Part shown: positions 1 to 63,690 of the stretch, piece after piece
Numbering within the stretch: the stretch's first letter is position 1
How the letters are laid out: each line of letters starts with the position of its first letter
IMG/VR virus record: IMGVR_UViG_3300001798_000005
Strand: one strand, 5' to 3'
DNA length: 64,000 nt
DNA from: a virus
Taxonomy: Duplodnaviria; Heunggongvirae; Uroviricota; Caudoviricetes
The notes under the pieces: generated by a model
What the model was told of the DNA's origin: nothing
The model's database searches: none
Seen by the model: the letters and a program-made list of their open reading frames with translations, nothing else
Program-made: the position numbers and the translations under genes

Positions 1-169
1 GTGATAGAGATCCCCGAGGGGGTGGATTTTGAGATACTGGATTACGACGGCTGGGAGTGGGTGGCGGAACGCCATCGGCGGTGGCCTGGATGACTTGGTT
101 TGAGGCTTTTCTCTGGACCCTTGCTGGGATCTGGATTGCAGAAAATTTAACAAAAAGAAAGGAAACAAA

Positions 170-451
170 ATGCAAACAATGAGTTTTGAAATTCCCCTCG
201 GGAGTGACGTTCAGGATGTCGTGACCGGCTTTAAGGGGCGGATTGATTCGGTTTGCCTGTGTCTAAATGGCTGCATCCGCTACAGTGTGACGCCGATGGT
301 CAAAGATGGCGGCATCGGGGAGGGCTATTGGTTTGACTCCCAGAGGATCGAACTCCTCGGACCAGGCATTAACGCCACCAAGCCCCAAGAGCAAACGGGG
401 ACCGGTGGGCCGATGACACGGAGCCTAATGGAAAAATCAGCCCGGGGGTGA
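170..451 (+). CDS. hypothetical protein (93 aa)
   Basis: ORF with AGGAAAC-N5-ATG RBS; no recognisable motif. Confidence 0.5.
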   Translation: MQTMSFEIPLGSDVQDVVTGFKGRIDSVCLCLNGCIRYSVTPMVKDGGIGEGYWFDSQRIELLGPGINATKPQEQTGTGGPMTRSLMEKSARG

Positions 452-461
452 GAATATGATA

Positions 462-527
462 ATACTCATAGAACTCCCTTATGGATTCTGGTATTATAAT
501 TGTATACCAGAAAGGGAAAGAGGAACG
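462..527 (+). promoter_or_regulatory. Conserved early promoter/operator copy 1: ATACTCAT box, TATAAT (495..500) centred in dyad CTGGTAT-N9-ATACCAG, RBS AAAGAGGAACG
   Basis: 44-nt stretch 484..527 is exactly repeated at 57978..58021; related copies at about 1510 and about 59592. Confidence 0.6.
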
Positions 528-531
528 CCCA

Positions 532-837
532 GTGAACGCCATCGAAACTGCCCAAGCCATCATCGCCAAAGCCCAAGCCACCCTGGCAGATCCCAGTGCT
601 GAACGCGCCAAAGGCGAGGCTTATGTGGACGCCTTGGCGGCTTCGGGAAATCAAGTCAACCAAGCCCTGGCGGCTGGGCTTGACCGGCACCACAGCGCCA
701 ATATCATCGCCCAAACGGATTTTGAATTTGATCGCCGGGACGCCTTCGGGCCTAAAGGAACCGTTCAAGATAGCCGAGAAAACCGCATTGAAGCGGCTGA
801 CCTCTTGGACGCCTTCGAAGAGGAAATGGGCTGGTAA
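532..837 (+). CDS. hypothetical protein (GTG start, about 101 aa)
   Basis: GTG at 532 sits at the same spacing after the conserved RBS as the ATG of the 58026 gene. The upstream ATG at 481 lies inside the promoter element. Confidence 0.5.
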   Translation: MNAIETAQAIIAKAQATLADPSAERAKGEAYVDALAASGNQVNQALAAGLDRHHSANIIAQTDFEFDRRDAFGPKGTVQDSRENRIEAADLLDAFEEEMGW

Positions 838-849
838 AAAAATAAATAT

Positions 850-885
850 ACCGATCGGTAGATTAATTTCTACCATAATAGAAGT
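850..885 (+). promoter_or_regulatory. Two adjacent palindromes (TACCGATCGGTA; GGTAGA-N6-TCTACC) in an AT-rich leader, candidate operator of the downstream RHH gene
   Basis: Perfect dyads read directly, about 60 bp upstream of the 938 ATG. Confidence 0.4.
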
Positions 886-937
886 ATAAACTATGCCATA
901 AGTATATACTATTGAGTTAATATGTAAAGGGGAAGTC

Positions 938-1312
938 ATGCCAAAAAACAACCCAGAGCCCAGGACGGCGCACATCTTCTCAATTCCGGATCGTGAATTT
1001 CAAGCCCTCAAGAGCTTGGCCGCCCAGGCGGGGGTTTCGATTGCTCAATACTGTGAGGACCTAATCATGCTCAATCCCGATATTGAGATTGAGAGAAAAG
1101 AAAAGTGCAAAAACAGAAATATCAACATGTCGGCCACCACCTGGGCGCGGCTCAAAGAGCGGGGAGACCAACTTGGAGTTTCGGCTTGCTCGGTCCTGAG
1201 GGGGTTAATCGGCCCAGCGGCCTTGGTGGATGTCAGATTCATGCAGAATGGTATTCATGTTGTGGCCTCCCCGATGGTCAAGAAGGTGGTCTATAACGCC
1301 CCAGGGGGGTAG
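938..1312 (+). CDS. tandem ribbon-helix-helix (CopG/Arc-like) DNA-binding protein
   Basis: Two RHH-like segments (FSIPDREFQALKSLAAQAGVSIAQYCEDLI and NMSATTWARLKERGDQLGVSACSVLRGLI). Confidence 0.45.
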   Translation: MPKNNPEPRTAHIFSIPDREFQALKSLAAQAGVSIAQYCEDLIMLNPDIEIERKEKCKNRNINMSATTWARLKERGDQLGVSACSVLRGLIGPAALVDVRFMQNGIHVVASPMVKKVVYNAPGG

Positions 1313-1509
1313 ATAAAGTCACCTGGAAGGCGAACCTAGACCCCTTAACTGGACCTCAGAAACCATTGCGCGGGCTCCCGCTCCCCCAAATGACACCAGG
1401 ATACAAGCCAGACATTTGGATGATGGGGGAAGCTTATCCTTCTTTGGAATAATTTTATTTACACAATACCCCTTAGCGAGCGCCAATAGGCGCTCTTTCC
1501 TTTTGTGAT

Positions 1510-1569
1510 AATCCTCATAGAAATATTGATCAAAACTATGGTATAATATCCTCATACCAGAAAGAAAAG
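1510..1569 (+). promoter_or_regulatory. Conserved early promoter/operator copy 3 (ATCCTCAT box 1511, TATAAT 1542, TGGTAT-N9-ATACCAG dyad)
   Basis: Shares box, -10 and dyad with copies 1, 2 and 4. Confidence 0.5.
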
Positions 1570-1599
1570 TTTATCAGTGCCCCTGAAAGGAGCCTACCG

Positions 1600-1803
1600 A
1601 TGCCTACCCCAACTCAACTCTGCCGCCTTAAAGGTCACTTAAAGGAACAATTCCTTCAGGCTCCAATCACGGTCATCACCGGAGAGGCAAGCGAGGCTTT
1701 CCCTCACCGGTGGGTGGCGGAACGTTATCCTGCTTCAATTTGCTTAACCTGGCAGGCCAAAGTAGATTATTGCCAAGAATGCTTTATTGAGCTTCCCGCC
1801 TAA
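1600..1803 (+). CDS. hypothetical protein (67 aa)
   Basis: ORF after GAAAGGAG RBS, downstream of promoter copy 3. Confidence 0.45.
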   Translation: MPTPTQLCRLKGHLKEQFLQAPITVITGEASEAFPHRWVAERYPASICLTWQAKVDYCQECFIELPA

Positions 1804-2077
1804 AGCGGCTCAGCCGCACCCCTGCGTGCCTCGCAACAAGCGGGGCACTTTAGGTTTTCACCCTTTCGGGCTGGCCACTCCTTGGCGGCTGAGTTGTAGT
1901 GTTCGTCCCAGTGGGTCGGGATCACACCTGAGGGGTTGGCTCTGGTCTTTTGACGATTGCCGCCCTGACCGTCCAGTTGGTCCTCGGCTGATGCCTCCAT
2001 CTTGCGGGTCTGTTGGGTCTTGATGTGTCGAGTATTCCAGTGGTGACAAACCCGAGGGTTGCGACGGGTACGGCTCA

Positions 2078-2404
2078 TCAATCCCACCAGTGGTTGCCGA
2101 GTCGGGCCACCATTTGCCAGATCCGATCCCAGTGGTATTTTTCCAGTTTTTCAGAATTTTCATACTGGGCACGCGCCAGTAACGCTTCACCGAAGCGCTT
2201 TTCAATCTTCCAGCCGTCAGGATCTTTAATACAATCCAGCTCCACCACTCCTGTACACAGCCACGGTGAATTCTGGTATCGATCAATATGGGTCCTCATT
2301 ATGGCGATCTGTTCCGCCCTTTTGGCCCCATCGAGCCTGTAGCCGTCCTGGACCGAGGCCTCTAGACGTTTCAGCTTAAAAGACATTATAGGCAAAATTG
2401 CCAA
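2078..2404 (-). CDS. hypothetical protein (108 aa)
   Basis: ORF only; lies in a GC-rich stretch with overlapping ORFs in all frames. Confidence 0.25.
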   Translation of the reverse strand: MAILPIMSFKLKRLEASVQDGYRLDGAKRAEQIAIMRTHIDRYQNSPWLCTGVVELDCIKDPDGWKIEKRFGEALLARAQYENSEKLEKYHWDRIWQMVARLGNHWWD

Positions 2405-2471
2405 AAAGTCAAAGTCATTATCTCACCAGATAATCGGTAGCCAATCCCAGGTTCGGCTTCTCTAATTCTCT

Positions 2472-2885
2472 TCATCTCCTGACCCACCCACGCGGTACAG
2501 GGCGGCCCTCTGATCTAAAGTAATAGGGTTGGACCCCCAATATTGAAATCATGTGCCTTAATGCCTCGCTGGGGGTATGGAAAAATCTCTTTACGTTCTG
2601 GAAGACCAGAATATTCCGATCCCGATAGTGTTTTCTTGCTTTTGGATCCCGATAGCCTCTTTTGACCTGGAGGCGTTTTGTGCGGATCTGATCGACGTCG
2701 AGGTATTCGATTTTGAAATCAAAGCCACTCCCGTCCTCAATAGAACCCATACGGGACCGCCGATAACGGATCAGATAGTCCCGATCCTGAGCCCGTCCCA
2801 GGAGGGCCTCCACGAAGTGCTCAGCCGCCAGGCCGAGCTGGCTAATGGGATCGTCGTAATTATGTTTAGTTTTGGTTTTCTTCAA
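2472..2885 (-). CDS. hypothetical protein (137 aa), possible nuclease-like fold
   Basis: ORF; weak D..E.K-like pattern (GFDFKIEY..QVK). Confidence 0.4.
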   Translation of the reverse strand: MKKTKTKHNYDDPISQLGLAAEHFVEALLGRAQDRDYLIRYRRSRMGSIEDGSGFDFKIEYLDVDQIRTKRLQVKRGYRDPKARKHYRDRNILVFQNVKRFFHTPSEALRHMISILGVQPYYFRSEGRPVPRGWVRR

Positions 2886-3039
2886 TGACCCATAACCTCG
2901 GGAAGCCGTCTATGAGGAGTTTCTGACCTTCAGAATCCCACCAGAGGGAGAAGGTAAAGAACTCTATTACTTCTGTAACTGTTTTTTGCATCATGTGGAT
3001 ATTTTATTATTTTTCTGAAATTTACGCAAGATGACCCAG

Positions 3040-3189
3040 CTACTGCCGGGCCATCTGCTCAATTTTTTCCTTATTGGCTTTGATCCATGCGTGTGCCTCG
3101 CGGGACATCCGGTGGCCGTAGATGACCTTCACCTCCTCTGGTGGCTTGGGTGGGCGGCCACGAGGGCGCTTGGGGGTTGAGTCAGGCAT
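3040..3189 (-). CDS. small AT-hook-like basic protein (49 aa)
   Basis: ATG overlaps the stop of the upstream gene (ATGCCTGA); RPRGRPPK motif. Confidence 0.3.
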   Translation of the reverse strand: MPDSTPKRPRGRPPKPPEEVKVIYGHRMSREAHAWIKANKEKIEQMARQ

Positions 3190-3544
3190 CGCGCTCAACC
3201 TCTATGCTAAGGCTCTCGCATAGGGCTAGTAGCTTTCTGGGCGGGGTATCCCCCTTCTTATTCCGCTCTGCTAGCGTGGCCAGTACCAGTTTTTTAAAAG
3301 CCTCTTTGCAGAGCACAGTTGATCTCCTGTATGTCAGTATGCCTGTGGACGGGCAATAGTCAATGTCTCTGACTAGAGGATCAGCTTCTAGATGAGAGGT
3401 CTGTGGGGGCTGGTATCCGAAGCCAACCAACCATTCAGCGTGGGTTATTTTGACAGAATCAAAATGGTATGACTCTCCGACACGCACAGCTTCATATATA
3501 CAGCCAGCTCTGTGTTGGCCCCTCTTGATGGCCTTTTTGCTCAT
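3182..3544 (-). CDS. hypothetical protein (120 aa)
   Basis: ORF only. Confidence 0.45.
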   Translation of the reverse strand: MSKKAIKRGQHRAGCIYEAVRVGESYHFDSVKITHAEWLVGFGYQPPQTSHLEADPLVRDIDYCPSTGILTYRRSTVLCKEAFKKLVLATLAERNKKGDTPPRKLLALCESLSIEVERDA

Positions 3545-3675
3545 TGGGTTACGTCCTTTCTGGCGGGATTGCCCGCAGCTCTTGGGTATGTAAGTATTAT
3601 CGTCGAGACGGGAAAGAAATGCAATAGTTTTTTGTCGTTACGTTTAATATTTCTTAAATTTTTGTTCTGTAAGAT

Positions 3676-3972
3676 CTATTTAGACAGGGGGAAGAAATAG
3701 GAAGCACGTGCTCTTGTCTGGACTTGTATTTTTTGCTCATCGATTAATTGATTAATCAAGCTATTTCGTTGGCTCTTATTTAGCCATTGAGTCTTTCTAG
3801 TTAGATCCATTTTGTAAATTCCACAATTATCTGAAATTATTTTATAAATTTTATCTTTCTCACTGTGCCGAGTTGGCTTAAACTCCCCCCTGGTGGTTAT
3901 TATTTCAATTATTTTATCCAGCTTCTCCTCCAGGGTGGTTATTTTGCTTAAAATGAAGTCAACAGTATCCAT
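3676..3972 (-). CDS. small wHTH-like protein sharing the C-terminal motif of the primase-polymerase (possible origin-binding regulator)
   Basis: C-terminus LTRKTQWLNKSQRNSLINQLIDEQKIQ versus primase C-terminus LTRKTQNLNKRRRTEILNDLVESHQIQ. Start assigned to the second ATG (AAAGGAG RBS). Confidence 0.5.
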   Translation of the reverse strand: MDTVDFILSKITTLEEKLDKIIEIITTRGEFKPTRHSEKDKIYKIISDNCGIYKMDLTRKTQWLNKSQRNSLINQLIDEQKIQVQTRARASYFFPLSK

Positions 3973-3999
3973 ATATGGCAATCTCCTTTGATAATTCAA

Positions 4000-17547: not shown

Positions 17548-17747
17548 CAGCGTCCCAGCTCTTTCAATGTGTTTTCAACTTGGTTGATCATCCCGGCCTT
17601 GGCACAATACAGAGCGGCTTCTTGTCCGATCTGAAGGGTGGCCCGAGTGGTGAAGAGAGCATTAGAGACCAATAAGACCAGCAGGACTGATGAAATTATT
17701 TTCCATTTCTTGATTTGCTTCTCCAGGGCGGTGAAAGTGGCTTCCAT
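17547..17747 (-). CDS. small membrane protein
   Basis: TM segment IISSVLLVLLVSNALF; large overlap with ligase 3-prime end lowers confidence. Confidence 0.25.
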   Translation of the reverse strand: MEATFTALEKQIKKWKIISSVLLVLLVSNALFTTRATLQIGQEAALYCAKAGMINQVENTLKELGR

Positions 17748-18408
17748 TAGGTTTCTCCTTTTCTGCAAAGTCACTACATTTCAGTTTTGTGATAATCCGA
17801 TTGCCTGATCGGGTCTTGAGTTCAACAACTGGGCGGGCCACGACGCCTTCAGCCCGGAAGGCCCCTCCATGGGTCCAGGTGGAATTGAATCCAACTTTGA
17901 CAAATTCAACCATTTCCAGCAGATTCCCTCGACCAACGATCGGAACGACCGAAAGGCCAAAAGTAGATGCTACATTTTCCAGATCAGGTCTTTTGAGCCA
18001 CCAATTGCCAACTTTGACGTCAAAGAGTACAAAGTCTTGATCGGGGCGATACAGTGCCCCAACTTTTTGGATCTTAGCCCCATAGCCCTCTCCGTAGAGG
18101 ACTGCGCCATTTGGAAAATCCTCATTGAGCTTTGCACTCTGATGGAAAAAGAGTTCTTCCAACCTGTTGATCAGGCTTGCTGGAATTTGAGCGTTAGCGG
18201 TCCGTCCCCCGAAGGATATCCTACCCCCATTGGCGATAGGGTCGACGATGATCCGAATATTGGTCCCATCGACTTTCTCGGTCCAGACCCAATCCATCAG
18301 CGCCAAATATTCAAAATATTCATTACTGTACTGCCCTTCCAGAAGGGCTTTTGATTTATTTTCAATATCCCGCTTGAAGACCGTGTTGATTTTGTGGTAT
18401 TCAGACAT
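17662..18408 (-). CDS. ATP-dependent RNA ligase-like nucleotidyltransferase (Rnl2-like)
   Basis: Motif I KVDGTN (KxDG), EGYG, FDVK, EGVVARP-like motifs; 248 aa. Confidence 0.55.
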   Translation of the reverse strand: MSEYHKINTVFKRDIENKSKALLEGQYSNEYFEYLALMDWVWTEKVDGTNIRIIVDPIANGGRISFGGRTANAQIPASLINRLEELFFHQSAKLNEDFPNGAVLYGEGYGAKIQKVGALYRPDQDFVLFDVKVGNWWLKRPDLENVASTFGLSVVPIVGRGNLLEMVEFVKVGFNSTWTHGGAFRAEGVVARPVVELKTRSGNRIITKLKCSDFAEKEKPNGSHFHRPGEANQEMENNFISPAGLIGL

Positions 18409-19051
18409 GGATTAACTCCTTTCCTGAACAGTTCCAACCGGGATATTCCCGCCGGGCAAATAATTCATATTTCTTTTCAACACCAGGATACATGGCCTCA
18501 ATGAGGGGATGGATGTCGGGCTTGCGGGAATGTTCCATGATTTTCTCCCGAATGATCGAGGGGGTCATCCGCTTGCCCCCAAAGGCCGCAGGCGTGACGC
18601 CTTGCCCCCGCGTGGCGATTATGCATATTTCGGCATTGGAAGCAGTATAGTGGCCAGGGCCATATTTAAGCTTTCCAGACCCTTTCTGTTCCTTTGTCCA
18701 CACAAAGCCAATGGTCGAGTATTCAAATCCCCACCCCTGGAGGACCGTCAGGGCATCATTGGGGCGGGTCCAGGTCTGAGTGGGCTTCCAGGAGGGTCGG
18801 CGACGCTGGCCATCGTACATCATCGGAAATGTCATCCACATGAACAGGATTGACCTCGGTCCCGCCAGGGCGGGGACGTCATACGTGATCGCAGGGTTGA
18901 TGATGTCCTGGGCCTTGAGGCATTCATAATGCCCGTCTGCCCCAGAGCCGAACCGGGTCCGGCCTCCACCGGTTAGGCGGTTGGCGTATTTCCAATTCGG
19001 ATCGGCCAAGAGGAGGGTCGCCTCAGGGAGCGGTTTTGTGATTTTAATCAT
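18401..19051 (-). CDS. MT-A70-family N6-adenine DNA methyltransferase
   Basis: LLADPNW (DPPW-type motif IV). Confidence 0.65.
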   Translation of the reverse strand: MIKITKPLPEATLLLADPNWKYANRLTGGGRTRFGSGADGHYECLKAQDIINPAITYDVPALAGPRSILFMWMTFPMMYDGQRRRPSWKPTQTWTRPNDALTVLQGWGFEYSTIGFVWTKEQKGSGKLKYGPGHYTASNAEICIIATRGQGVTPAAFGGKRMTPSIIREKIMEHSRKPDIHPLIEAMYPGVEKKYELFARREYPGWNCSGKELIHV

Positions 19052-19089: not shown

Positions 19090-19260
19090 TTAATGCTTAC
19101 AAAATAAATCGGACGACTCACTCCCCTGGAGACAATTCAAGCATGCGTATCCCCTTTTATATTTAGGATTGCTGAAGCCTCCCAAGATTCCGAAAGCACA
19201 GACAAAGGAAGAAATTGCCAATATTGTAATCGCGAAAATAGCAGGGCATTCATTTATCAT
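19090..19260 (-). CDS. micro-membrane protein (56 aa) translationally coupled to the SPFH gene
   Basis: ATG overlaps SPFH stop (AAATGATAA); hydrophobic AIFAITILAISSFVCAFGILGG. Confidence 0.35.
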   Translation of the reverse strand: MINECPAIFAITILAISSFVCAFGILGGFSNPKYKRGYACLNCLQGSESSDLFCKH

Positions 19261-20021
19261 TTCTTCAACCCCATAATGATCGAGCTATTGCCCGCCACGG
19301 TCTCGGGGAGCTTGCCGTCCCATTTCTCGACCCACTTAAGCTCAACCAACTTGGGGGAGTTCGCCAGAGCTTGACTTTGTAGCCGAATGGACTCGGCCTC
19401 GGCCTGAGCCTTGGCAACGGTGATTTCAGCCTGTTTCTTTTCCCGGTCAAGCTCGTACTGCTTCTTTTTAGCGGAAATCTCCATCTCCTGCTTCTCAATG
19501 ACAGCTTTCTGGAGCGCCTCCGGCAGCTCAACGTGAGTGATCGGAATATCGATGATCTCGATCTGCCCCTTGATGGATTCTCTCACCATGGCCAGAACCT
19601 GTGCCTTGATGGCATTCACGCCACCCGTGACGGCCTCGGCCTTGTATTGAGATACGATTTGGCGGAAACTTTCCTGCACCTGCGGGGCAACGAGGACCTG
19701 ATAGGGGTCGCCTTGAACGTTTTGAAAAAGGTTAAGGAGTTGCCCCTCTGGGAGCCGGTACTGCACCCGGAACGAGATCGCCAGCGGTTGTTGATCAGAC
19801 GTCAGTGGATTGGCCGAACCCTCAACGGCGACCTGTTTGGTCGTGAAGGTGTGGATGCGTTCCGTGAAGGGGTTATACCCGAACAGGCCAGGGCTGAGGA
19901 GATCCTTCTTTACTGCGCCAAGCTCGACTTTGATCCCGCGCTCGCCGGGGTCAATGGTCGCGCAACCAGTCAGCCCCAAGGCCATCAGGGCCGTGAGGGG
20001 GAAGATTAAACTATTTTTCAT
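19257..20021 (-). CDS. SPFH/band-7 (prohibitin/HflC-like) lipoprotein
   Basis: Lipobox LTGC after signal peptide; SPFH-like core then charged coiled-coil tail (EKQEMEISAKKKQYELDREKKQAEITVAKAQAEAE). Confidence 0.55.
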   Translation of the reverse strand: MKNSLIFPLTALMALGLTGCATIDPGERGIKVELGAVKKDLLSPGLFGYNPFTERIHTFTTKQVAVEGSANPLTSDQQPLAISFRVQYRLPEGQLLNLFQNVQGDPYQVLVAPQVQESFRQIVSQYKAEAVTGGVNAIKAQVLAMVRESIKGQIEIIDIPITHVELPEALQKAVIEKQEMEISAKKKQYELDREKKQAEITVAKAQAEAESIRLQSQALANSPKLVELKWVEKWDGKLPETVAGNSSIIMGLKK

Positions 20022-20142
20022 TTGTGTCCTTTCCGAGTAATTTATCAATGAGTCCCTGAAGGCGCCCCATGCCCTGTAAGATCACTGCCAGGGTGACGCC
20101 CACGAGCAGGACGGCCAGAAATTCAAATGCAATCATTTTCAT
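20011..20142 (-). CDS. micro-membrane protein (43 aa) immediately upstream of and overlapping the SPFH gene
   Basis: AAGGTGGAGG RBS, MKMIAFEFLAVLLVGVTLAVIL. Confidence 0.35.
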   Translation of the reverse strand: MKMIAFEFLAVLLVGVTLAVILQGMGRLQGLIDKLLGKDTNEK

Positions 20143-20176
20143 AATGCCTCCACCTTACGTAAATTTTATCCCGATG

Positions 20177-20530
20177 TCAAGATTTCCTTTTCCTTTCTGA
20201 GTTCTCTTTTGCAGTCTTGGCCTTGTGGCAATCTAGGCAGAGTGTCTGCATGTTCTCCAGCCCCTTTGATCCTTGATCGATCAGCGGGATGATGTGATCA
20301 AGTTGCCATCTCGGATCATAAGCCCCACAGGCTGCACAGGTCCCCCGGTCGCGCTTAAAGATGATCGTTCGAGCATGGCTGGGCCATGCTTGAATTTTGT
20401 ATTCCTCGACACAAATAGGGTGCCACCCGGCTCGACGATTGATGGTCCCATTCTTGTAAATAATCTTTCCACACCATTTACAATACCCGGGTTTTACAGA
20501 TTTCTTTTTGGGTTTTCGGTGATCAGGCAT
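20177..20530 (-). CDS. HNH endonuclease
   Basis: CKWC...HPICV...CAAC..DHIIP...N...LC..CH. Confidence 0.65.
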   Translation of the reverse strand: MPDHRKPKKKSVKPGYCKWCGKIIYKNGTINRRAGWHPICVEEYKIQAWPSHARTIIFKRDRGTCAACGAYDPRWQLDHIIPLIDQGSKGLENMQTLCLDCHKAKTAKENSERKRKS

Positions 20531-21107
20531 ACTCGACTAGTTCAACAGACTGCTCAAGATTAGAGATAAAGGCATAAATCGAATCCCAACTATCATGCCT
20601 GATGAAGTTATCATATTCGGCGTTATAGGGCTGAGTGAATAAAATGGGCCATCGGTCCTCAACGGGGCGATATTGATCCCAATGTTGTCGCCACTTCAAG
20701 AGGTTCTTACCATGGTCTTCAATCAAGATATCGACATCAATGAGTTCCTTCTTCCAGGTGAAGATACAGTTTTTCTCACTGATTCGAGGAATATGATTTT
20801 TTAACCACTGAAGCTTGCACTCCTGACCGGTCCGGCAGGCGGAGATGATGATAATCTCATGGCCGTCATCGATCAGTCGATTGACATTCTCAACGGCTCC
20901 CCTGATGGGCGCCAGATGGCGGAAAAAGCCAGGCTCACAAAAGTATTGAAATACATCCTCACGAGTCGCATTTTTACAATTTTTCTGAAAATCGTATTTC
21001 GTGATATCCTCCACTGACAGCGACTCCCCATGATAGCGATTCAGCTTTTCCACCACTGAGGCCGTAAGGTCACACAAGACCCCATCCATGTCAATTCCTA
21101 TTCTCAC
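20523..21107 (-). CDS. 5-prime(3-prime)-deoxyribonucleotidase (HAD-type, NT5C-like)
   Basis: N-terminal IGIDMDGVL (DxDGVL) HAD motif, about 190 aa. Confidence 0.55.
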   Translation of the reverse strand: MRIGIDMDGVLCDLTASVVEKLNRYHGESLSVEDITKYDFQKNCKNATREDVFQYFCEPGFFRHLAPIRGAVENVNRLIDDGHEIIIISACRTGQECKLQWLKNHIPRISEKNCIFTWKKELIDVDILIEDHGKNLLKWRQHWDQYRPVEDRWPILFTQPYNAEYDNFIRHDSWDSIYAFISNLEQSVELVEYA

Positions 21108-21193: not shown

Positions 21194-21700
21194 TCAAACA
21201 GAGCTGGTGACCAATCCAATGACGATCTCCTTTATGTGTTCCAGGATGGCCTTCGGGGCTGGTCGGCGGGTCAGGATGATGTGAATCCCTCTCTTACCCT
21301 CTGGCTGCCTGATAGGGCTGAGCCATGGCAGTGGTGCCTCAATCTGCTTATCGTTGACGATAATCCCGGCATCCTGCATGGCATCCTGGACGGCCTTGAG
21401 GTAATTATCGGCGTCTCCTCTCGGTGAAGAACAAAAGAACTCACAGATCATGAAATATCGGTTATCCTTCACGTAAGCGGTCTTGCCTTTCTCGTCATAC
21501 CGGAAGGCATGTGTGGCTTCTAGCCAGAGATCTGAAAAGGCAGATTTGAACATTGTCGCCAACGTTTTTTTGTATTCAGTGTACTCTTTTCTGTTGTAGA
21601 CATTTTTTACACCCGCTCGGGGCCGGGGCGTCGGCATCGGGTCAATGGGAAAATCGATAAACCATGCATCACGCCGCCTAGGGGTTTCGATGACCTCCAT
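21194..21700 (-). CDS. RusA-like Holliday junction resolvase
   Basis: GDADNYLKAVQDAM (D.DN..K...D). Confidence 0.6.
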   Translation of the reverse strand: MEVIETPRRRDAWFIDFPIDPMPTPRPRAGVKNVYNRKEYTEYKKTLATMFKSAFSDLWLEATHAFRYDEKGKTAYVKDNRYFMICEFFCSSPRGDADNYLKAVQDAMQDAGIIVNDKQIEAPLPWLSPIRQPEGKRGIHIILTRRPAPKAILEHIKEIVIGLVTSSV

Positions 21701-21777: not shown

Positions 21778-21898
21778 TTCTTCATCTCTCCATCGCTGAT
21801 TTATTCATCATAAGATTAATCTTACATAAGGTCAAGGCTTGACATGAATTTTCAAATTCAATATCATTAAGGCCCTTATAACTCTTACTTCTCTTCAG

Positions 21899-21922
21899 CC
21901 GCCCTTGGGCGGTTTTTTCTTT
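21899..21922 (+). terminator. plus-strand-oriented rho-independent terminator (CCGCCC-TTG-GGCGG + TTTTTTCTTT)
   Basis: Read directly; sits in a minus-strand gene block. Confidence 0.45.
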
Positions 21923-22376
21923 AAAAGCGCTTGAACCAATTTAGAGGGAAGAGGATGACGGCCCACTTGTATTTTTCCGCCTCAACTCTCGCAATACCGG
22001 CGAACTGCGCATCGAGGGACAAGAAGCTGTTCGTGGCCGGAGTATGCCAGGGCGAAAGGTCCGGGTTCCACTCACCCTTGGAGTTCTGGGTTTCAAAACG
22101 AAACAATTCGGGGTGGGGGAACTTCCCTTTCTCTTGCCAGAATCTATCGTGCCAGAGGGATGGGCCATCCCAGGGGCCATCAGGGCGGGCGACCCCCCAG
22201 AGGGGACGAGGGACTGAGGCCTTGTCGTATTCGTAGCCTGCGGCCATAAAGAGGCGTTTTCTGAACCCTACAGGCCCCCACTCTTGAGTGTAATCCTCAT
22301 CGAGCCGGTAAAGATTAGTCGCCTCATCGTACTGAAGGACGGGACTTTTGTAATTTTCTTGTGTGCTGTATGTCAT
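21921..22376 (-). CDS. DUF1353-like phage protein
   Basis: YEYDKASVPRPLW-type motif (from memory of DUF1353). Confidence 0.35.
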   Translation of the reverse strand: MTYSTQENYKSPVLQYDEATNLYRLDEDYTQEWGPVGFRKRLFMAAGYEYDKASVPRPLWGVARPDGPWDGPSLWHDRFWQEKGKFPHPELFRFETQNSKGEWNPDLSPWHTPATNSFLSLDAQFAGIARVEAEKYKWAVILFPLNWFKRF

Positions 22377-22858
22377 AGTACCACCAAGTCGATCACGGGC
22401 GATTCATCAGAAATGCCGCGCAAGACAGCAAATAACTTTTCCACTTGTGCTCTCTCCAGTGGATTACGGCCCAATAGCACGATACAGCCAGCCGAGCCCG
22501 GCTTGGTATTCTCAGGGTGGAGGCCAATATCGAAGCGCTGATAATTATTGCGCTTGTGATCATAGATTCGTCTGGTATTGCTGGAATCGGTGAAGATTTT
22601 GAAAAACTCACCAATACCATCATAGTCAGACCACTTCCCGGCCTTGAGGGAATGGAGATCGATCTGATGCCTCCCAAACGGAACTGGGCTCTTGCCCCTC
22701 ACCCAATCGGTTCCCTCATAGCCCTTCTGTCCCGAACGGGCCGCCATGCGGTGAAAGAGCGTTCTGGCCTTCTTGGTATCGGGATCATAAGCCTGAAGGG
22801 TCAGGGCGCCATCAATTGAATGGACCTGCTTGTCAAAATAAAGCGTAAATTTATCCAC
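22373..22858 (-). CDS. L,D-transpeptidase-fold (YkuD/DUF2778-like) protein, candidate endolysin
   Basis: GLHPENTKPGSAGCIVL resembles H...S.GC[IV] catalytic motif; GTG start overlapping holin-like stop (GTGGATAA). Confidence 0.35.
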   Translation of the reverse strand: MDKFTLYFDKQVHSIDGALTLQAYDPDTKKARTLFHRMAARSGQKGYEGTDWVRGKSPVPFGRHQIDLHSLKAGKWSDYDGIGEFFKIFTDSSNTRRIYDHKRNNYQRFDIGLHPENTKPGSAGCIVLLGRNPLERAQVEKLFAVLRGISDESPVIDLVVL

Positions 22859-23108
22859 GCGGCCCAGCCTCACAGTTCTGGCAGTGACCACAGATCTCCA
22901 TGATCTTAAGCCGAATATCAGCCAACAGGTCAGGCGTGGAGGCATGGTGCTCCTTCAACGTGATGGCTTCAACGATCAATCGGTCCATCTTGTCTTCAAT
23001 CCGATTCATGGCCCCCGACATGGCAAAAACAACCAACAAGGCGAGCCCGATTCTGGAATTAAGGATCTGGCCAATAACTTTAAGCGTCGCGGGGTTCGGG
23101 ATCTTCAT
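22851..23108 (-). CDS. holin-like small membrane protein
   Basis: 85 aa, TM IGLALLVVFAMSGAM, adjacent to lysin candidate. Confidence 0.35.
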   Translation of the reverse strand: MKIPNPATLKVIGQILNSRIGLALLVVFAMSGAMNRIEDKMDRLIVEAITLKEHHASTPDLLADIRLKIMEICGHCQNCEAGPRG

Positions 23109-52012: not shown

Positions 52013-52362
52013 TGCCTTTTTACGAGTTACCCGGCCCAAAGGTTGTTGAAAAGTACACTGAATATCTTCGTATAGCAAAGGCAGACCCAAATGGTGAATG
52101 GAATTCAAATGAATATTGGATGAGTTGTGGCTTTAAGGCCGCCTGCACAATGTTTTTTGGCACTGTGTACGCTGGCTCTCTTATAATGCAGTCCGATAGT
52201 TTGCTTGAGGAGGAGACAGCCCAGGCCGTCCAGACCTTCCCTGAGGCCTACGAGGGCGCCAAGGCCAGACAGCCACTAGTGGGCGAGATTCTGCAACTTT
52301 CCCCGATTCCGGGAAAGTTGGATGTGCCACGCTTCTCCAGCACAGATGAGCCGGGGGTGTAG
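52013..52362 (+). CDS. hypothetical protein
   Basis: ORF. Confidence 0.4.
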
Positions 52363-52366
52363 GCGG

Positions 52367-52936
52367 ATGAAGGTACTTGTTGGCTGCGAATTCAGTGGGA
52401 TTGTGCGGGACGCCTTTCTGATGGCTGGTCACGAGGCTGTATCCTGCGACCTTCTTCCCACGGAAAGCCCAGGGCCTCACATTCAAGGTAATATTCTGGA
52501 TCATTTGGATGACGGGTGGGACCTAGGCATTTTCCACCCGCCTTGCACCTACTTATCGAATAGCGGGGTCCGCTGGCTGCATTCCGACCCGAAGCGGTGG
52601 GAACTTATGGCCGATGCGGCTCATTTTTTCAACACGATCTTGTCCGCTAATATCCCCTCGATCTGTGTCGAAAACCCGATCCAACATAAATACGCGCGGG
52701 CGCTTATCCCATTGTATCAACAGATCATACACCCGTGGCAGTACGGACACCCGGAATCAAAGACGACTTGTCTTTGGCTTAAGAACCTACACCCCTTAGT
52801 GACAACAAGAATCATGGAGGAGCGGGAACAAAGGCTTTGGAAGCTGCCGCCCAGCCTAACCCGCTGGAAGAAGCGCAGTGTTACTTATGCCGGAATCGCT
52901 CAGGCGATGGCAGAGCAATGGAGCAAGTATGCATAA
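52367..52936 (+). CDS. short DNA (cytosine-5)-methyltransferase-like protein lacking an obvious target-recognition domain
   Basis: Motif I-like GCEFSG, motif IV PPC (FHPPCTYLS), motif VI ENP (ICVENP); only about 190 aa. Confidence 0.4.
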   Translation: MKVLVGCEFSGIVRDAFLMAGHEAVSCDLLPTESPGPHIQGNILDHLDDGWDLGIFHPPCTYLSNSGVRWLHSDPKRWELMADAAHFFNTILSANIPSICVENPIQHKYARALIPLYQQIIHPWQYGHPESKTTCLWLKNLHPLVTTRIMEEREQRLWKLPPSLTRWKKRSVTYAGIAQAMAEQWSKYA

Positions 52937-54086: not shown

Positions 54087-54560
54087 ATGCTGACAAATGA
54101 GGAATTGCAGGCGATAGCCGAGCTTGAGGAAAGAGCCACTAAAGGGCCTTGGTTTATAAAAACCGACTCCTGTGATTGTGGAGACGGCTATGGATGCTCT
54201 CACAGGGCGTGGGGCTATGAGCTTTATCGTGTAGATCCAGAACCAGATCCCGAATGGGGAGACATGGAAACAAAAGCCCGCCAATGCCTTTCCGGTCTAT
54301 ATCAGCGTCCGGTTGCTGAAGATATTATAATAAGCGTTGATGATGGTGAATTCTGTGCCACCGCCCGCACAAACATCCCCGCGCTCCTGGCCCACATCAC
54401 CGAGCAGGCGGAGACCATTGGGAAGCTGAGGGACGTAATCAGAAAATCTACCACCTATCGATACCAGACGTGTGATGGCACTTGGTGTACAGGGTGCTGG
54501 AAAGACTTGGCACGCGATACCCTCGCCGAAACAGCCGCGTTTGAGACCAACAATGTTTAA
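54087..54560 (+). CDS. hypothetical protein, paralog B with Cys-rich insert
   Basis: See paralog A. Confidence 0.5.
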   Translation: MLTNEELQAIAELEERATKGPWFIKTDSCDCGDGYGCSHRAWGYELYRVDPEPDPEWGDMETKARQCLSGLYQRPVAEDIIISVDDGEFCATARTNIPALLAHITEQAETIGKLRDVIRKSTTYRYQTCDGTWCTGCWKDLARDTLAETAAFETNNV

Positions 54561-55131
54561 AAAAGCTAAAATAGATCTCAACACTTATCTGATCGCTGAT
54601 CTCCATCTCGGCCATAAGGGAATTATCAAATTTTCCAGAACTGAATTCGAGACCCTCGACCAGCACCACGCGGCCATTGTTGAGAGATGGAACTCAGTCG
54701 TTTGCCCCAATGACAAAATACTGATCCTGGGCGATCTAGCGTTTACGATCCCTGAGCTTGAAATCCTCCATGACCTGAAAGGGAGCAAGATCCTCGTCAT
54801 GGGGAACCATGACCTTAACAGCGCCTCCAGGTATTTGAAGTATGTCGATGACATCGGAGGCGCAGTCAACTGCACCATAGGGGATAAACGGCTGATCTTC
54901 ACCCATATCCCGATTCACCCAAATTGCATGCGATGGGATCTCAATATTCACGGCCACCTCCATGGGGGGCAGATTTTGGATCATACGCAAGTGGACAAGC
55001 CAAGGGATTTGCGATATTATTGCGTAAGTTGGGAGATCCTAAACGGATATCCCGTGAAGTTAGGAACAGTACTGGAAAGGATTGATAATGAAAATCACCA
55101 TCCCGGCGGAATTAATCCCCAAGAGCATTGA
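54553..55131 (+). CDS. calcineurin-like metallophosphoesterase
   Basis: DLHLGH, GDLA, GNHD, GHLH motifs. Confidence 0.55.
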   Translation: MFKKAKIDLNTYLIADLHLGHKGIIKFSRTEFETLDQHHAAIVERWNSVVCPNDKILILGDLAFTIPELEILHDLKGSKILVMGNHDLNSASRYLKYVDDIGGAVNCTIGDKRLIFTHIPIHPNCMRWDLNIHGHLHGGQILDHTQVDKPRDLRYYCVSWEILNGYPVKLGTVLERIDNENHHPGGINPQEH

Positions 55132-55832: not shown

Positions 55833-56177
55833 GTGAATTATAAAGAATTTATCACCCTGGCCAGTCAGGGGAAAAAGCTCCGAGATAAAACTTGGGGTAA
55901 GGAACTGTGGATCCAGATGAGGGATGATGGGACTTTTATCAGCTCGGACGGTCGGGCAATGCACTATCAGGCTGGGGCAGACGTTTCTGAATTTGAGATC
56001 TTTATCGAGCCCGTGACCTTTGAGGCATGTCTGGCTGCGCAAAGTGTCAATATTATATTTCCCGGCGGAAACGGATCTTCTGATGATAGCTATACTCAAT
56101 CAGGCGGTTGGACCCTCCAGGAGCTTTCAGTTTTTGATCTCGCCATCCGGTATGGTTGGGAAATCGAACTCTCATGA
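55833..56177 (+). CDS. hypothetical protein
   Basis: ORF. Confidence 0.4.
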   Translation: MNYKEFITLASQGKKLRDKTWGKELWIQMRDDGTFISSDGRAMHYQAGADVSEFEIFIEPVTFEACLAAQSVNIIFPGGNGSSDDSYTQSGGWTLQELSVFDLAIRYGWEIELS

Positions 56178-56884
56178 TCGCCATCCCCGACATTCATGGC
56201 CGCTATGATCGCCTTCAGGCCATTCTGAAACTGTTAAAAGAGGCCGGAAAGGCCGATCCCAAAAATATGATCTTCCTCGGGGATTATGTAGACCGAGGCC
56301 CGGAGTCGGCCCAAGTGGTCTCGACCCTGCGGGAGTTTCAGCGCCAAGGGGCTATTGTCCTTAAGGGCAATCATGAGGGGCTGATGTGTGATGCGGTTTT
56401 AAAGGGCCACTTTGAAGCAACTTCCCTTTGGGAGATGAACGGCGGGGGTGAGACAAGGCGATCCTATCATGCGACCTATCAGGACCCCAGCGCAGCCCTG
56501 AGGTATGATGCCAAGTGGCTGCAGGATCTGCCGCTCTATCACGAGAACGAAACGGAGTTCTTCTCTCACGCGCCCCTGCCACCGCTGTTAGAAAAATCTT
56601 CTCAATTCCCAGATTGGCGCTTGGCGCTCCTGAATGAGCAGATTATGACCTGGAGCTACTTCCAGCCAGAGAATGCCGCCTTCAAGGTGCCGGGCAAGGA
56701 TGCCTATTGCGGCCACGTCCACGCCCTCCGGGCCAATATCTGGTTACCTCGCTTTTATGAACGCTATGCCTACCTGGATGCCGGGTGCGGTTGCCTCCCT
56801 GATGCTAAACTGGTGGCTTTCGATACTGAAGAAAAGAGACTTTATGTTGATGACCTGGAGAAACAATATGGAACCTTTGAGTAA
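56174..56884 (+). CDS. lambda-type Ser/Thr protein phosphatase (PPP family)
   Basis: DIHG, GDYVDRG, GNHE and LWEMNGGGETR parallel lambda PPase motifs. Confidence 0.65.
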   Translation: MIAIPDIHGRYDRLQAILKLLKEAGKADPKNMIFLGDYVDRGPESAQVVSTLREFQRQGAIVLKGNHEGLMCDAVLKGHFEATSLWEMNGGGETRRSYHATYQDPSAALRYDAKWLQDLPLYHENETEFFSHAPLPPLLEKSSQFPDWRLALLNEQIMTWSYFQPENAAFKVPGKDAYCGHVHALRANIWLPRFYERYAYLDAGCGCLPDAKLVAFDTEEKRLYVDDLEKQYGTFE

Positions 56885-58025: not shown

Positions 58026-58250
58026 ATGAACAGCCCGAAAACGAAACCAGAACGCCTTCAAGAAGAACTTGAACTTTCCCTGGATGTCCTTGACTCACTC
58101 CAGGAGAAAATTGCCGCAATGCGGATCCTCTTGGAAACCGGCAAGGCTGATCAGTATGCTGGCCGAGAGCTTCGATTCGCTGAAGCGTCCCTGCCGGGGG
58201 CTGAGTATGATATCCGGCGGTTTCAAGAAGCGATTGCCCTTTCAGCTTAG
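58026..58250 (+). CDS. hypothetical protein (74 aa)
   Basis: ATG at conserved spacing after repeated RBS. Confidence 0.5.
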   Translation: MNSPKTKPERLQEELELSLDVLDSLQEKIAAMRILLETGKADQYAGRELRFAEASLPGAEYDIRRFQEAIALSA

Positions 58251-58886
58251 GCTGAAGGGCTCGCCGTTGCGGGTGATCGGGAGGGTGGGGTAAACTCTTC
58301 TAACTTTATAGAGCATCTCATCACACGCCTGCGGGCTGCCAGAACCAACAATGAGCTGGTGTGTGCCTATGTCAAAAATATCACCCGGTTGACAAAATCC
58401 AGTTTCAGGCGCCTGTGGGGGCGGGGCCATTGGAGCTTCCAACTCCTCAACGGATTCCCCCAAGTCCAGATCGGGGAAATTGATCTCATCCAGCAATTCT
58501 GAAAGATCTATATCCTCCACGAAGGCGTCAAAGCTCTCCTGGGTGATGGTGCCGTGCTCGCTTGATGCCTGGAGGACCAGGGCCTTCGCGCCTTCGATGG
58601 ACTCGGCCCATATCTCGACAACCGGGAGGTCTGGCACGGTATAACCTTCGGCCTCTAGTTCCGCCAAGGCCTTGCAGCGCCCAGCGCCGTCGATGATGAG
58701 GCGGTGATCGGCCCAGACGTAGAAAGGAAAGCAGAATCCACGGTTGACTATTGCGTTTTTGAGTTTTGAGATATCTCGGTCCTCAACGGCCTTGAGGGTA
58801 TTGGCCTCGAAGGTCTTCAGCTCCCCCCAGGAGAGGGTTGGAACGTTTTGGACCTGAATGGGGAAGGTCTTTTGTTTCTTGGCCAT
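58242..58886 (-). CDS. ParB/Srx-like N-terminal nuclease-domain protein
   Basis: NAIVNRGFCFPFYVWADHRLIIDGAGRCKAL; acidic C-terminal half. Confidence 0.4.
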   Translation of the reverse strand: MAKKQKTFPIQVQNVPTLSWGELKTFEANTLKAVEDRDISKLKNAIVNRGFCFPFYVWADHRLIIDGAGRCKALAELEAEGYTVPDLPVVEIWAESIEGAKALVLQASSEHGTITQESFDAFVEDIDLSELLDEINFPDLDLGESVEELEAPMAPPPQAPETGFCQPGDIFDIGTHQLIVGSGSPQACDEMLYKVRRVYPTLPITRNGEPFSLS

Positions 58887-58894
58887 GTGTGTCT

Positions 58895-58917
58895 CCAATT
58901 AGGAAGTTCCTAATTGG
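58895..58917. promoter_or_regulatory. 23-nt palindrome CCAATTAGGAA-G-TTCCTAATTGG overlapping the RBS of the ParB-like gene (operator or parS-like site)
   Basis: Perfect 11-bp arms read directly. Confidence 0.45.
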
Positions 58918-59821: not shown

Positions 59822-60108
59822 AGGTCGTAATTTCTGAATGTCATGGGGGCTTTGGGTTGTCTGAGGCCGCCCAGATGTGGATCGCGGAAAAGGGATTGAA
59901 CCCTGATGCCCTCTTGGCCCAGTGGACCGCTGGGGAGCTGCGGGGGCTCCAGGTCCTAGTTGATTGCGTGGAAGCCCTTGGGGAGCGGGTCAACACCTCT
60001 TTCTCAAAGCTCTCCGTGATAGAGATCCCCGAGGGGGTGGATTTTGAGATACTGGATTACGACGGCTGGGAGTGGGTGGCGGAACGCCATCGGCGGTGGC
60101 CTGGATGA
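59818..60108 (+). CDS. hypothetical protein
   Basis: ORF; its 3-prime end is window positions 1..93 in the left copy. Confidence 0.45.
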   Translation: MKVVISECHGGFGLSEAAQMWIAEKGLNPDALLAQWTAGELRGLQVLVDCVEALGERVNTSFSKLSVIEIPEGVDFEILDYDGWEWVAERHRRWPG

Positions 60109-60184
60109 CTTGGTTTGAGGCTTTTCTCTGGACCCTTGCTGGGATCTGGATTGCAGAAAATTTAACAAAAAGAAAGGAAACAAA

Positions 60185-60466
60185 ATGCAAACAATGAGTT
60201 TTGAAATTCCCCTCGGGAGTGACGTTCAGGATGTCGTGACCGGCTTTAAGGGGCGGATTGATTCGGTTTGCCTGTGTCTAAATGGCTGCATCCGCTACAG
60301 TGTGACGCCGATGGTCAAAGATGGCGGCATCGGGGAGGGCTATTGGTTTGACTCCCAGAGGATCGAACTCCTCGGACCAGGCATTAACGCCACCAAGCCC
60401 CAAGAGCAAACGGGGACCGGTGGGCCGATGACACGGAGCCTAATGGAAAAATCAGCCCGGGGGTGA
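60185..60466 (+). CDS. duplicate of 170..451
   Basis: identical. Confidence 0.5.
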   Translation: MQTMSFEIPLGSDVQDVVTGFKGRIDSVCLCLNGCIRYSVTPMVKDGGIGEGYWFDSQRIELLGPGINATKPQEQTGTGGPMTRSLMEKSARG

Positions 60467-60546
60467 GAATATGATAATACTCATAGAACTCCCTTATGGA
60501 TTCTGGTATTATAATTGTATACCAGAAAGGGAAAGAGGAACGCCCA

Positions 60547-60852
60547 GTGAACGCCATCGAAACTGCCCAAGCCATCATCGCCAAAGCCCAAGCCACCCTG
60601 GCAGATCCCAGTGCTGAACGCGCCAAAGGCGAGGCTTATGTGGACGCCTTGGCGGCTTCGGGAAATCAAGTCAACCAAGCCCTGGCGGCTGGGCTTGACC
60701 GGCACCACAGCGCCAATATCATCGCCCAAACGGATTTTGAATTTGATCGCCGGGACGCCTTCGGGCCTAAAGGAACCGTTCAAGATAGCCGAGAAAACCG
60801 CATTGAAGCGGCTGACCTCTTGGACGCCTTCGAAGAGGAAATGGGCTGGTAA
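60547..60852 (+). CDS. duplicate of 532..837
   Basis: identical. Confidence 0.5.
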   Translation: MNAIETAQAIIAKAQATLADPSAERAKGEAYVDALAASGNQVNQALAAGLDRHHSANIIAQTDFEFDRRDAFGPKGTVQDSRENRIEAADLLDAFEEEMGW

Positions 60853-60952
60853 AAAAATAAATATACCGATCGGTAGATTAATTTCTACCATAATAGAAGT
60901 ATAAACTATGCCATAAGTATATACTATTGAGTTAATATGTAAAGGGGAAGTC

Positions 60953-63559: not shown

Positions 63560-63690
63560 TGGGTTACGTCCTTTCTGGCGGGATTGCCCGCAGCTCTTGG
63601 GTATGTAAGTATTATCGTCGAGACGGGAAAGAAATGCAATAGTTTTTTGTCGTTACGTTTAATATTTCTTAAATTTTTGTTCTGTAAGAT

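Follow-up and report, generated by a model that had tools for sequence, protein, structure and literature searches.

Among bacterial SPFH (band-7) proteins, HflK/HflC of Escherichia coli provides the only well-understood model of a periplasm-facing SPFH cage, one which encloses FtsH. Small membrane proteins are known as partners of other members, the precedents being NfeD with stomatin (PMC2636767) and YdjG/YdjH, which anchor YdjI, a protein that has no transmembrane (TM) anchor of its own and relies on its partners (PMC8581546). The SPFH4 or p-prohibitin subfamily has no NfeD partner, is probably oriented towards the periplasm and is unstudied (PMC2636767). Phages carry SPFH genes as well, which have been listed without function in T4-like phages (PMC1524935), Kayvirus (PMC7150955), Burkholderia CSP3 (PMC10269572) and, as gp200, in Vi01-like phages (PMC10892097), and the reason for the presence of such a gene in a phage genome "remains unclear" (PMC13239085). 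In Kayvirus, a small TM protein (MbpV) coupled upstream of the SPFH gene (MbpS) has already been described (PMC7150955). Here we report on an SPFH lipoprotein gene and its two small neighbours in the tailed-phage record IMGVR_UViG_3300001798_000005, of which we analysed the whole 64,000-nucleotide (nt) stretch, hereafter the window. We favour, with a probability of about 0.5, a reading in which the SPFH gene and the 43-amino-acid (aa) gene ahead of it form a two-gene membrane-scaffold cassette of cellular origin, auxiliary in a virulent-looking siphophage, with a third, lineage-specific small membrane gene packed behind.

The three genes are part of a co-oriented run on the minus strand, with the following features:

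20156..20147, minus strand: Shine-Dalgarno-like sequence AAGGTGGAGG, 4 nt ahead of the ATG of the 43-aa gene
20142..20011, minus strand: open reading frame (ORF) of the 43-aa bitopic micro-membrane protein MKMIAFEFLAVLLVGVTLAVILQGMGRLQGLIDKLLGKDTNEK
20011..20021, minus strand: 11-nt overlap of the 43-aa stop (TAG at 20013..20011) and the SPFH start (ATG at 20021; ACAAATGAAAAATAG)
20021..19257, minus strand: 254-aa SPFH/band-7 (prohibitin-type) lipoprotein (Pfam Band_7, phrog_200)
19962..19973, minus strand: lipobox L17-T18-G19-C20, a predicted signal peptidase II site, with Cys20 as the predicted lipidated mature N-terminus
19362..19520, minus strand: long charged alpha-helix, residues 168-220, rich in E/K/Q/A and uninterrupted in the secondary structure of the AlphaFold (AF2) model
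19260..19090, minus strand: ORF of the 56-aa bitopic TM/Cys protein, with one TM helix and 5 Cys
19257..19260, minus strand: ATGA overlap of the SPFH stop (TGA) and the 56-aa ATG (GAAGAAATGATAAATG), also present in the related phage L001

The 254-aa product matches Pfam Band_7 (PF01145) with 98.6 bits against a cut-off of 23.6 (E=5.7e-28; residues 22-205 on profile positions 2-174 of 176) and the phrog_200 'lipoprotein' profile with E=3.8e-47 (residues 1-247 on profile positions 81-351 of 379). Its signal peptide, MKNSLIFPLTALMALGLTG followed by Cys, has a basic n-region and a hydrophobic core and agrees with the lipobox pattern [LVI][ASTVI][GAS]C. Cys20 is invariant in 25 of 25 aligned phage and bacterial homologues, and W234, G236 and P239, in a C-terminal K-W-D-G-K-L-P motif, are likewise invariant in the aligned homologues. 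A 158-aa ORF on the plus strand inside the gene (19533..20009) was discarded as a by-product, the minus-strand frame having hundreds of homologues. An AF2 model of the monomer, built on a 25-homologue alignment (mean predicted local distance difference test score 74), shows beta-rich SPFH elements, the helix 168-220 and a further helix 223-233. The best full-length Foldseek matches of this model are human prohibitin (8rrh), HflC/K (7vhq), stomatin and erlin, with a probability of 1.0 and a template modelling score of about 0.6 against these full-length chains; 7wi3, 9cz2 and QmcA-YbbJ (8z5g) are also among the fold matches. The nearest sequences of solved structure are prohibitins (9urz, E=1e-12; 8rrh), followed by HflK, and the HflK/C-FtsH structures 7vhp, 7wi3 and 9cz2 appear among the sequence and fold matches. 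The equivalog cut-offs were not reached, either for HflK (TIGR01933, 36.1 bits vs 159.4) or for HflC (TIGR01932, 40.0 bits vs 134.4), and we take the protein to be a relative of HflK/HflC, not an orthologue. According to the model, the helix 168-220 corresponds to the wall helix (CC1) of SPFH cages, and the protein possesses every element of a cage-forming SPFH protomer. The lipoprotein signal replaces the N-terminal TM helix of a prohibitin-type (SPFH4-like) SPFH protein. Because a lipid anchor stands in the place of that helix, export and lipid anchoring are predicted for the mature protein, whose SPFH domain would lie in the periplasm, on the same side as that of HflK/C. These properties fit a place within the SPFH4/p-prohibitin subfamily. 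No second SPFH gene was found in the 60-kb genome.

The gene is under marked constraint. Its ratio of non-synonymous to synonymous substitutions (dN/dS) against L001 is 0.037, the lowest of eight neighbouring genes, and the protein is 95% identical between the window and L001, as compared with 60-85% for the neighbouring proteins, with a dS of 0.6-2 between the two genomes. Such constraint is compatible with a self-assembling scaffold or with a conserved host target.

In the 43-aa protein, which begins with the motif M-K-M-I-A-F-E, a single hydrophobic helix (about residues 4-24) is followed by a Gly-rich hinge and then by a short charged helix. Between its ORF and the L001 orthologue there are 12 synonymous and 8 non-synonymous differences (dN/dS 0.147, Fisher test, p=1.2e-4), and it is a real gene under selection. 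Its 11-nt overlap with the SPFH gene is predicted to couple the translation of the two. The charge distribution weakly favours an N-out/C-in topology, which would bring the conserved Glu7 to the outer surface of the membrane, near the SPFH domains. Annotation of the family is all but absent: it matched nothing in Pfam, PHROG, NCBIfam or PADLOC, an exhaustive phmmer search of 1.84 billion representative proteins returned only the protein's own cluster, a word-indexed protein search returned 3 proteins only, and tblastn against the phage collection returned nothing. Its conservation was for this reason taken from the six-frame ORFs of the retrieved loci.

For the 56-aa protein, the charges flanking the TM helix (0+/1- on the N side, 3+/0- on the C side) give a clear N-out/C-in pattern, with the Cys/His cluster (C40-x-x-C43 ... 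C54-x-H56) at the cytoplasmic C-terminus. It aligns gap-free over 54 residues, 19 of them identical (~35%), with an 81-aa ORF in the same position in L001 (z=12 vs 3000 segment-preserving shuffles), and synonymous sites are saturated. Conserved between the two is the pattern F-G-x-x-G-G-F-x-N-P-x-x-K-x-G-x-A-C-x-x-C, and the L001 ORF has a second C-x-x-C, giving a zinc-ribbon-like pattern. By this alignment the 56-aa ORF is a coding gene. A match to zf-ChsH2 (E=0.04) was below the cut-off and no other family was matched; tblastn of the 56/81-aa protein gave no credible match in phages, with Listeria matches at E=0.5. The first-pass annotation of this DNA had described three packed genes, the middle one encoding an SPFH/band-7 protein with a lipobox and a long charged helix, and a small membrane-protein gene on either side of it; every one of these elements is present, including the strong Shine-Dalgarno sequence and both overlaps, and the profile, fold, lipobox and substitution data above substantiate the description.

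The same annotation regarded the three genes as a tripartite module, and the relatives tell otherwise. Single-protein scans of viral and genome contigs yielded no close relatives and profile-based scans were needed; we then read the six-frame ORFs of 40-odd loci with close SPFH homologues. The 43-aa family lies directly upstream of the SPFH gene in L001, L008, L009 and L010, the SPFH identities to the window being 95, 65, 63 and 61%, respectively, and the two genes overlap by 11 nt in L001, 14 nt in L009 and 8 nt in L010, with a 4-nt gap in L008. M1, K2, M3, A5, F6, E7, G26 and Q29 are invariant in these four proteins and that of the window. The gene order of the window region is shared with L001, and the flanking genes differ among the four other pair-bearing contigs. 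In a neighbour-joining tree (no bootstrap), the SPFH proteins of the pair-bearing loci form one subclade, nested in a clade of phage-borne SPFH copies with a few sequences of unknown context. In contrast, the 56-aa family was found, among the loci compared, in the window and L001 only; the position downstream of the SPFH gene is occupied by unrelated non-membrane genes in L008, L009, L010, L011 and L019. Since the 56-aa gene has a homologue only in L001 while the 43-aa family is kept in four other contigs, the conserved unit is the pair of micro-TM and SPFH genes, not a triplet. Conservation of the small ORFs in related genomes is therefore real for the 43-aa gene and fails for the 56-aa gene beyond L001. 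The latter is a lineage-specific neighbour, not a conserved partner, and its TM/zinc-knuckle product may serve as a client or an optional accessory, or have nothing to do with the pair.

These distributions also bear on the simplest alternative, that there is no module at all and that the three genes are functionally unrelated neighbours whose overlaps reflect nothing but the tight packing of phage genes. Genes that overlap at start and stop are indeed common in the window genome (NT5C/HNH and MT-A70/RNA ligase are two examples), phage SPFH genes often have small TM ORFs nearby (9/31), and the 56-aa gene is not conserved past the nearest relative. However, four other diverged contigs, whose flanks differ, keep the 43-aa family beside the SPFH gene, and the family tracks the SPFH phylogeny; such retention is hard to explain without a functional linkage of the two. 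Mere packing is thus likely for the 56-aa gene, as we favour, and unlikely for the 43-aa gene; as an account of the whole locus we judge it quite unlikely. Some other members of the clade have a small ORF with an N-terminal TM helix and a different sequence, which overlaps or abuts the SPFH start. Such ORFs occur in the phage L011, which encodes ERF, Dam and RusA; in the IMG/VR phage L019, which encodes DUF2800 and an Enc34-type single-stranded DNA-binding protein and where the overlap is 80 nt; in L037; and in the bacterial locus L023 (PrmA, PIN/Phd).

The SPFH gene also has close homologues on bacterial chromosomes. These are 55-62% identical and lie on contigs of 0.3-1.3 Mb amid housekeeping genes. 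At about ten bacterial loci the SPFH lipoprotein gene is followed, 9-90 nt on, by a gene whose product of 90-105 aa combines an N-terminal TM helix with a coiled coil; Glu5, Gly19, Arg53, Leu57 and Gln72 are invariant in this product. The bacterial loci with such a pair are L004, L025, L027, L029-L032, L038, L039, L041, L056 and L057. A profile of this ~95-aa partner retrieved 77 database proteins, all unnamed or "hypothetical", and the named sources are Candidatus Melainabacteria, Obscuribacterales, Cyanobacteria bacterium SZAS-4 and two metagenome-assembled genomes labelled Drouetiella. In the Melainabacteria assemblies GCA_003963305.1 and GCA_018266255.1 the two genes are neighbours, and their SPFH protein has 58% identity with that of the phage. 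Assignments of the partner to PspB, TatA or generic coiled-coil families were all below threshold, and no Pfam or NCBIfam family was matched.

The N-terminus of the bacterial partner, M-I-A/V-V/F-E followed by a hydrophobic helix, resembles that of the phage micro-protein (hhalign probability 81%, P=1.2e-5, over 24 columns). In a reciprocal hidden Markov model (HMM) search of 4771 ORFs, the micro-proteins of L009, L001 and the window, gp145 of the Bacillus phage AvesoBmore and the L011 ORF were among the first non-family matches (E=0.3-1.7). Homology of the two small proteins is plausible but unproven on these grounds. A cellular, Melainabacteria-type origin of the 43-aa and SPFH genes seems likely from the sequence comparisons. 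As the nearest cellular SPFH homologues and the only named carriers of the partner are found there, the data also suggest that the window phage may infect Melainabacteria, the uncultured non-photosynthetic sister group of Cyanobacteria, for which our literature search found no reported phage.

How far the pairing extends can be judged from other phages. By tblastn, full-length SPFH homologues of 20-31% identity were found in 784 of 50,697 GenBank phage records, the carriers including Kayvirus (phage K ORF28/MbpS), N4-like ("similar to N4 gp20"), Vi01-like, phiCbK-like, Bruynoghevirus, crAss-like and Lak phages, and Halorubrum (haloarchaeal) viruses. An SPFH lipoprotein in a phage is thus ordinary though unexplained, and the impression of rarity conveyed by the first reading, which knew of no characterised phage system of this form, has to be given up, the more so as the Kayvirus arrangement had already been described. 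Of 11 SPFH loci sampled from diverse annotated phages, six encode a small TM protein directly upstream: phage K (ORF29), HHBS55_2 (Pseudomonas), CcrBL10, P18-100 (Klebsiella), Moo19 (gp30) and AvesoBmore (gp145). At two further loci it is found two genes upstream (BIS47) or directly downstream (a crAss-like phage). A separate family of micro-proteins with two TM helices (2-TM), of about 64-66 aa and with the motif P-x-x-V/I-S-A/M-K/S-D-T/S-x-x-V, also accompanies SPFH genes:

L048 832..1032, L051 1010..1204 and L053 1008..1208: 2-TM micro-proteins of the Klebsiella phages BIS47 and P18-100 and of the N4-like Shigella phage Moo19

The 2-TM protein overlaps the SPFH start in two of these three phages, and Moo19 gp30 is annotated as "similar to N4 gp19".

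In the scaffold reading that we favour, the SPFH lipoprotein would assemble in the infected cell into an HflK/C- or prohibitin-like ring or dome on the periplasmic side of the inner membrane. The TM element, which HflK/C and prohibitin have in cis, would be supplied in trans by the 43-aa protein, the protomer being in this sense "split". The ring could then fence off a membrane patch or a client machine, for which an FtsH-type AAA protease would be the first candidate, solely on the analogy of HflK/C and mitochondrial prohibitin. Such fencing might stabilise phage or host membrane proteins and the integrity of the envelope during infection. The 56-aa protein would be an optional accessory or an unrelated neighbour.

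Several observations weigh against this proposal. The residue at lipoprotein position +2 is Ala, which by the E. coli rule directs to the outer membrane, and such a location would separate the SPFH protein from its inner-membrane partner. The link to FtsH is by analogy, the HflK/HflC equivalog scores being 36-40 bits against cut-offs of 134-159. The similarity between the micro-protein and the bacterial partner concerns the hydrophobic helix only (plain HMM E 0.3-3), and the gene order is inverted, the partner lying upstream in phages and downstream in bacteria; because of this limited similarity and this inversion, convergence is possible. Lastly, the frequency of an upstream small TM protein (6/11) is not significantly different from that among the other nearby small genes (9/31; Fisher test, p=0.13), so that a general rule of TM micro-genes across phage SPFH genes is not established.

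One might speculate further that the pair is a general two-component, "split HflK-like" cage, which phages took up once and of which they kept the TM stub, deploying an uncoupled or dominant-negative cage that hijacks the SPFH system of the host, possibly with an FtsH-type client. The cytoplasmic coiled coil of the Melainabacteria partner would then report on the periplasmic cage or couple it to the cytoplasm, and the same logic would extend to N4 gp19/gp20 and to Kayvirus MbpV/MbpS. We hold this wider proposal to be unlikely.

The phage-encoded lipoprotein with its predicted export also brings superinfection exclusion to mind, in which a periplasmic lipoprotein and its TM partner would block incoming DNA at the inner membrane or mask a receptor. 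Lipoproteins of phages do act in exclusion, as exemplified by T5 Llp, phi80 Cor and TP-J34 Ltp, and in Moo19 the SPFH gene (gp31) and the 2-TM gene (gp30) are one gene away from an annotated P22 gp17-like superinfection exclusion gene. Nonetheless, no exclusion family of PADLOC or PHROG was matched, the PADLOC-DB defence/exclusion profiles giving no match at E<=0.01 for the 43-aa, SPFH or 56-aa protein. Moreover, the dN/dS of 0.037 and the 58% identity to chromosomal homologues in a housekeeping context are unlike what is seen in fast-evolving exclusion proteins, and the architecture of a complete cage protomer has been kept. An exclusion function is in our opinion improbable, and the scaffold cassette remains the reading that we prefer.

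A role as lysis accessory has also to be weighed, the module tuning holin triggering or lysis timing, or aiding the export of a cell-wall hydrolase, through the organisation of membrane domains. In Kayvirus, mbpV-mbpS lies between the endolysin gene lysK and the gene tgl for a secreted transglycosylase, and help with the export of Tgl has been proposed (PMC7150955). In a crAss-like phage, genes for a 2-TM protein and a peptidoglycan hydrolase come after the SPFH gene. In the window, a putative lysis region (21921..23108) follows immediately on the tail-fibre genes, some 2 kb upstream of the module and on its strand:

23108..22851, minus strand: 85-aa single-TM protein
22945..22373, minus strand: 190-aa protein with a YkuD/L,D-transpeptidase-like motif HPENTKPGSAGC / HPENTKPGSAGCIVL (Pfam Tlde1, E=5e-4, below the cut-off)
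22376..21921, minus strand: DUF1353 protein, after the 190-aa protein

If the 190-aa protein is an endolysin, its L,D-peptidase fold would be of an unusual type; the other window ORFs scanned included no canonical endolysin, holin or spanin. Against a lysis role, a 220-bp gap with a promoter-like site and the RusA, NT5C and HNH genes intervene between this region and the locus, and the relatives L008-L011 and L019 place the SPFH gene amid recombination, replication or methylase genes. None of the three proteins is similar to holin, antiholin or spanin families, and a unimolecular spanin is impossible, the C-terminal TM helix being absent. The spanin reading was rejected on the same grounds, the lipoprotein being the 254-aa SPFH protein, which has no spanin PHROG match; more generally, the spanin, holin and defence-system readings find no profile support in PHROG or PADLOC. 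We consider an involvement in lysis doubtful and retain the scaffold reading.

The co-oriented run in which the pair is embedded comprises the following genes and candidate signals:

21897..21914, plus strand: GC-rich hairpin with T-run, within the 220-bp gap between DUF1353 and RusA
21835..21807, minus strand: promoter-like TTGACC-17-TATGAT, within the same gap
21700..21194, minus strand: RusA, same-strand neighbour on the upstream side
21107..20523, minus strand: NT5C nucleotidase, same-strand neighbour
20530..20177, minus strand: HNH endonuclease, directly ahead of the 43-aa gene, with a 34-nt spacer (20143..20176)
19051..18401, minus strand: MT-A70 DNA methyltransferase, next after the 56-aa gene
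18408..17662, minus strand: RNA ligase, end of the listed run

The 220-bp gap may mark a transcription-unit boundary upstream of the block with the SPFH gene. In a promoter and terminator scan, the site counts in the region were not above those of shuffled controls, and the site at 21835..21807 is to be read as a hint only. The free-standing HNH gene beside the SPFH locus may be the mark of a site of gene exchange. In L001, an additional gene of 105-122 aa (L001 4515..4883) lies between the HNH endonuclease and the 43-aa gene.

The window as a whole is a complete tailed-phage genome of 60,015 bp continued past its own end, positions 1..3985 being identical to 60016..64000. Large and small terminase, portal, major head protein, tape measure and a lambda-J-like central fibre are encoded, which bears out the initial attribution to a phage, as are primase, helicases, a Sak4-like annealing protein and a Cas4-like exonuclease; a search of the window genome for tRNA genes was negative. 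The nearest terminase matches, from Rhizobium phages, are only 44% identical, and the phage therefore appears to be without a close cultured relative. The ENA contig ERZ27300258 (60,156 bp) contains a 13-kb stretch in the gene order of the window, and its 141 extra bases look like the assembler's end-overlap of a circular assembly. Identical SPFH and 43-aa proteins have been reported on a contig of 238,674 bp, about four times the genome length, for which concatemer formation, mis-assembly or a prophage within a host contig are conceivable explanations. Elsewhere in the genome there are three DNA methyltransferase-like genes (18401..19051, 52322..52936 and 58242..58898), one MT-A70, one phrog_757 and one phrog_498 with a ParB-like profile match, and, beside the RNA ligase, two phosphoesterases, one of them NinI-like (among 17662..18408, 54472..55131 and 56156..56884). 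To judge from these annotations, the methyltransferases, the RNA ligase and the phosphoesterases resemble a toolkit for anti-restriction and RNA repair.

Genes for SPFH/band-7 lipoproteins rank with the commoner accessory genes that tailed phages carry, and none has an assigned function. To this picture the window locus adds clear and strong purifying selection on a phage SPFH gene, a selected unit in which the SPFH gene is joined by that of a very small membrane protein that mostly escapes annotation, and a traceable Melainabacteria source, where the partner is longer but of the same N-terminal type. Should the pairing prove functional, the two genes ought to be deleted or expressed together in tractable phages such as N4 and phage K.

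Compared with the cellular systems, the window SPFH protein comes closest to the prohibitins (SPFH4, PMC2636767; eukaryotic PHB1/PHB2), which provide its best sequence and full-length fold matches and with which it shares the absence of an NfeD partner and, by prediction, the periplasmic or intermembrane-space-equivalent orientation. It differs from them in its lipobox anchor in place of a TM helix, in being a single gene and not a PHB1/PHB2 pair, and in being phage-encoded and coupled to a micro-TM protein. With E. coli HflK/HflC-FtsH it has in common the periplasm-facing SPFH domain (again predicted for the window) and the long wall helix, but not orthology, an own TM helix or the hflK-hflC gene pairing, and it would be homo-oligomeric at best. 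In the NfeD-stomatin (QmcA-YbbJ) and Bacillus subtilis YdjG/YdjH-YdjI systems the SPFH gene is, as here, accompanied by small membrane proteins, which are co-transcribed with it and anchor it or complete its assembly. The window partner, however, has only 43 aa and lacks the OB-fold NfeD domain, and those systems face the cytoplasm whereas the window SPFH protein is predicted to be exported; no NfeD-family neighbour was found, the 43- and 56-aa proteins having no Pfam or NCBIfam match and being too short for an OB fold.

The chromosomal pair of Melainabacteria resembles the phage pair in its SPFH protein, which is 55-58% identical with the same lipobox, and in the M-I/V-A-V/F-E-hydrophobic start of the partner, and is unlike it in the cytoplasmic coiled coil of ~70 residues and the downstream position of that partner. 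Among phages, the phrog_200 members (MbpS, N4 gp20-like, Vi01-like gp200) belong to the same profile family, many being annotated as lipoproteins, and have the same C-terminal W-D/N-G-x-x-P motif; a small TM gene overlapping the SPFH start, as in the window, is found in phage K (ORF29/MbpV), Moo19 (gp30), P18-100, CcrBL10 and AvesoBmore (gp145). The window SPFH protein is nevertheless less than 31% identical to any member from a cultured phage and falls in a separate clade, with Melainabacteria chromosomal genes as its nearest relatives, and its micro-partner belongs to a distinct 41-44-aa family that is absent from the phage collection. The locus is thus no new kind of system, but a divergent addition to a known, uncharacterised phage gene family.

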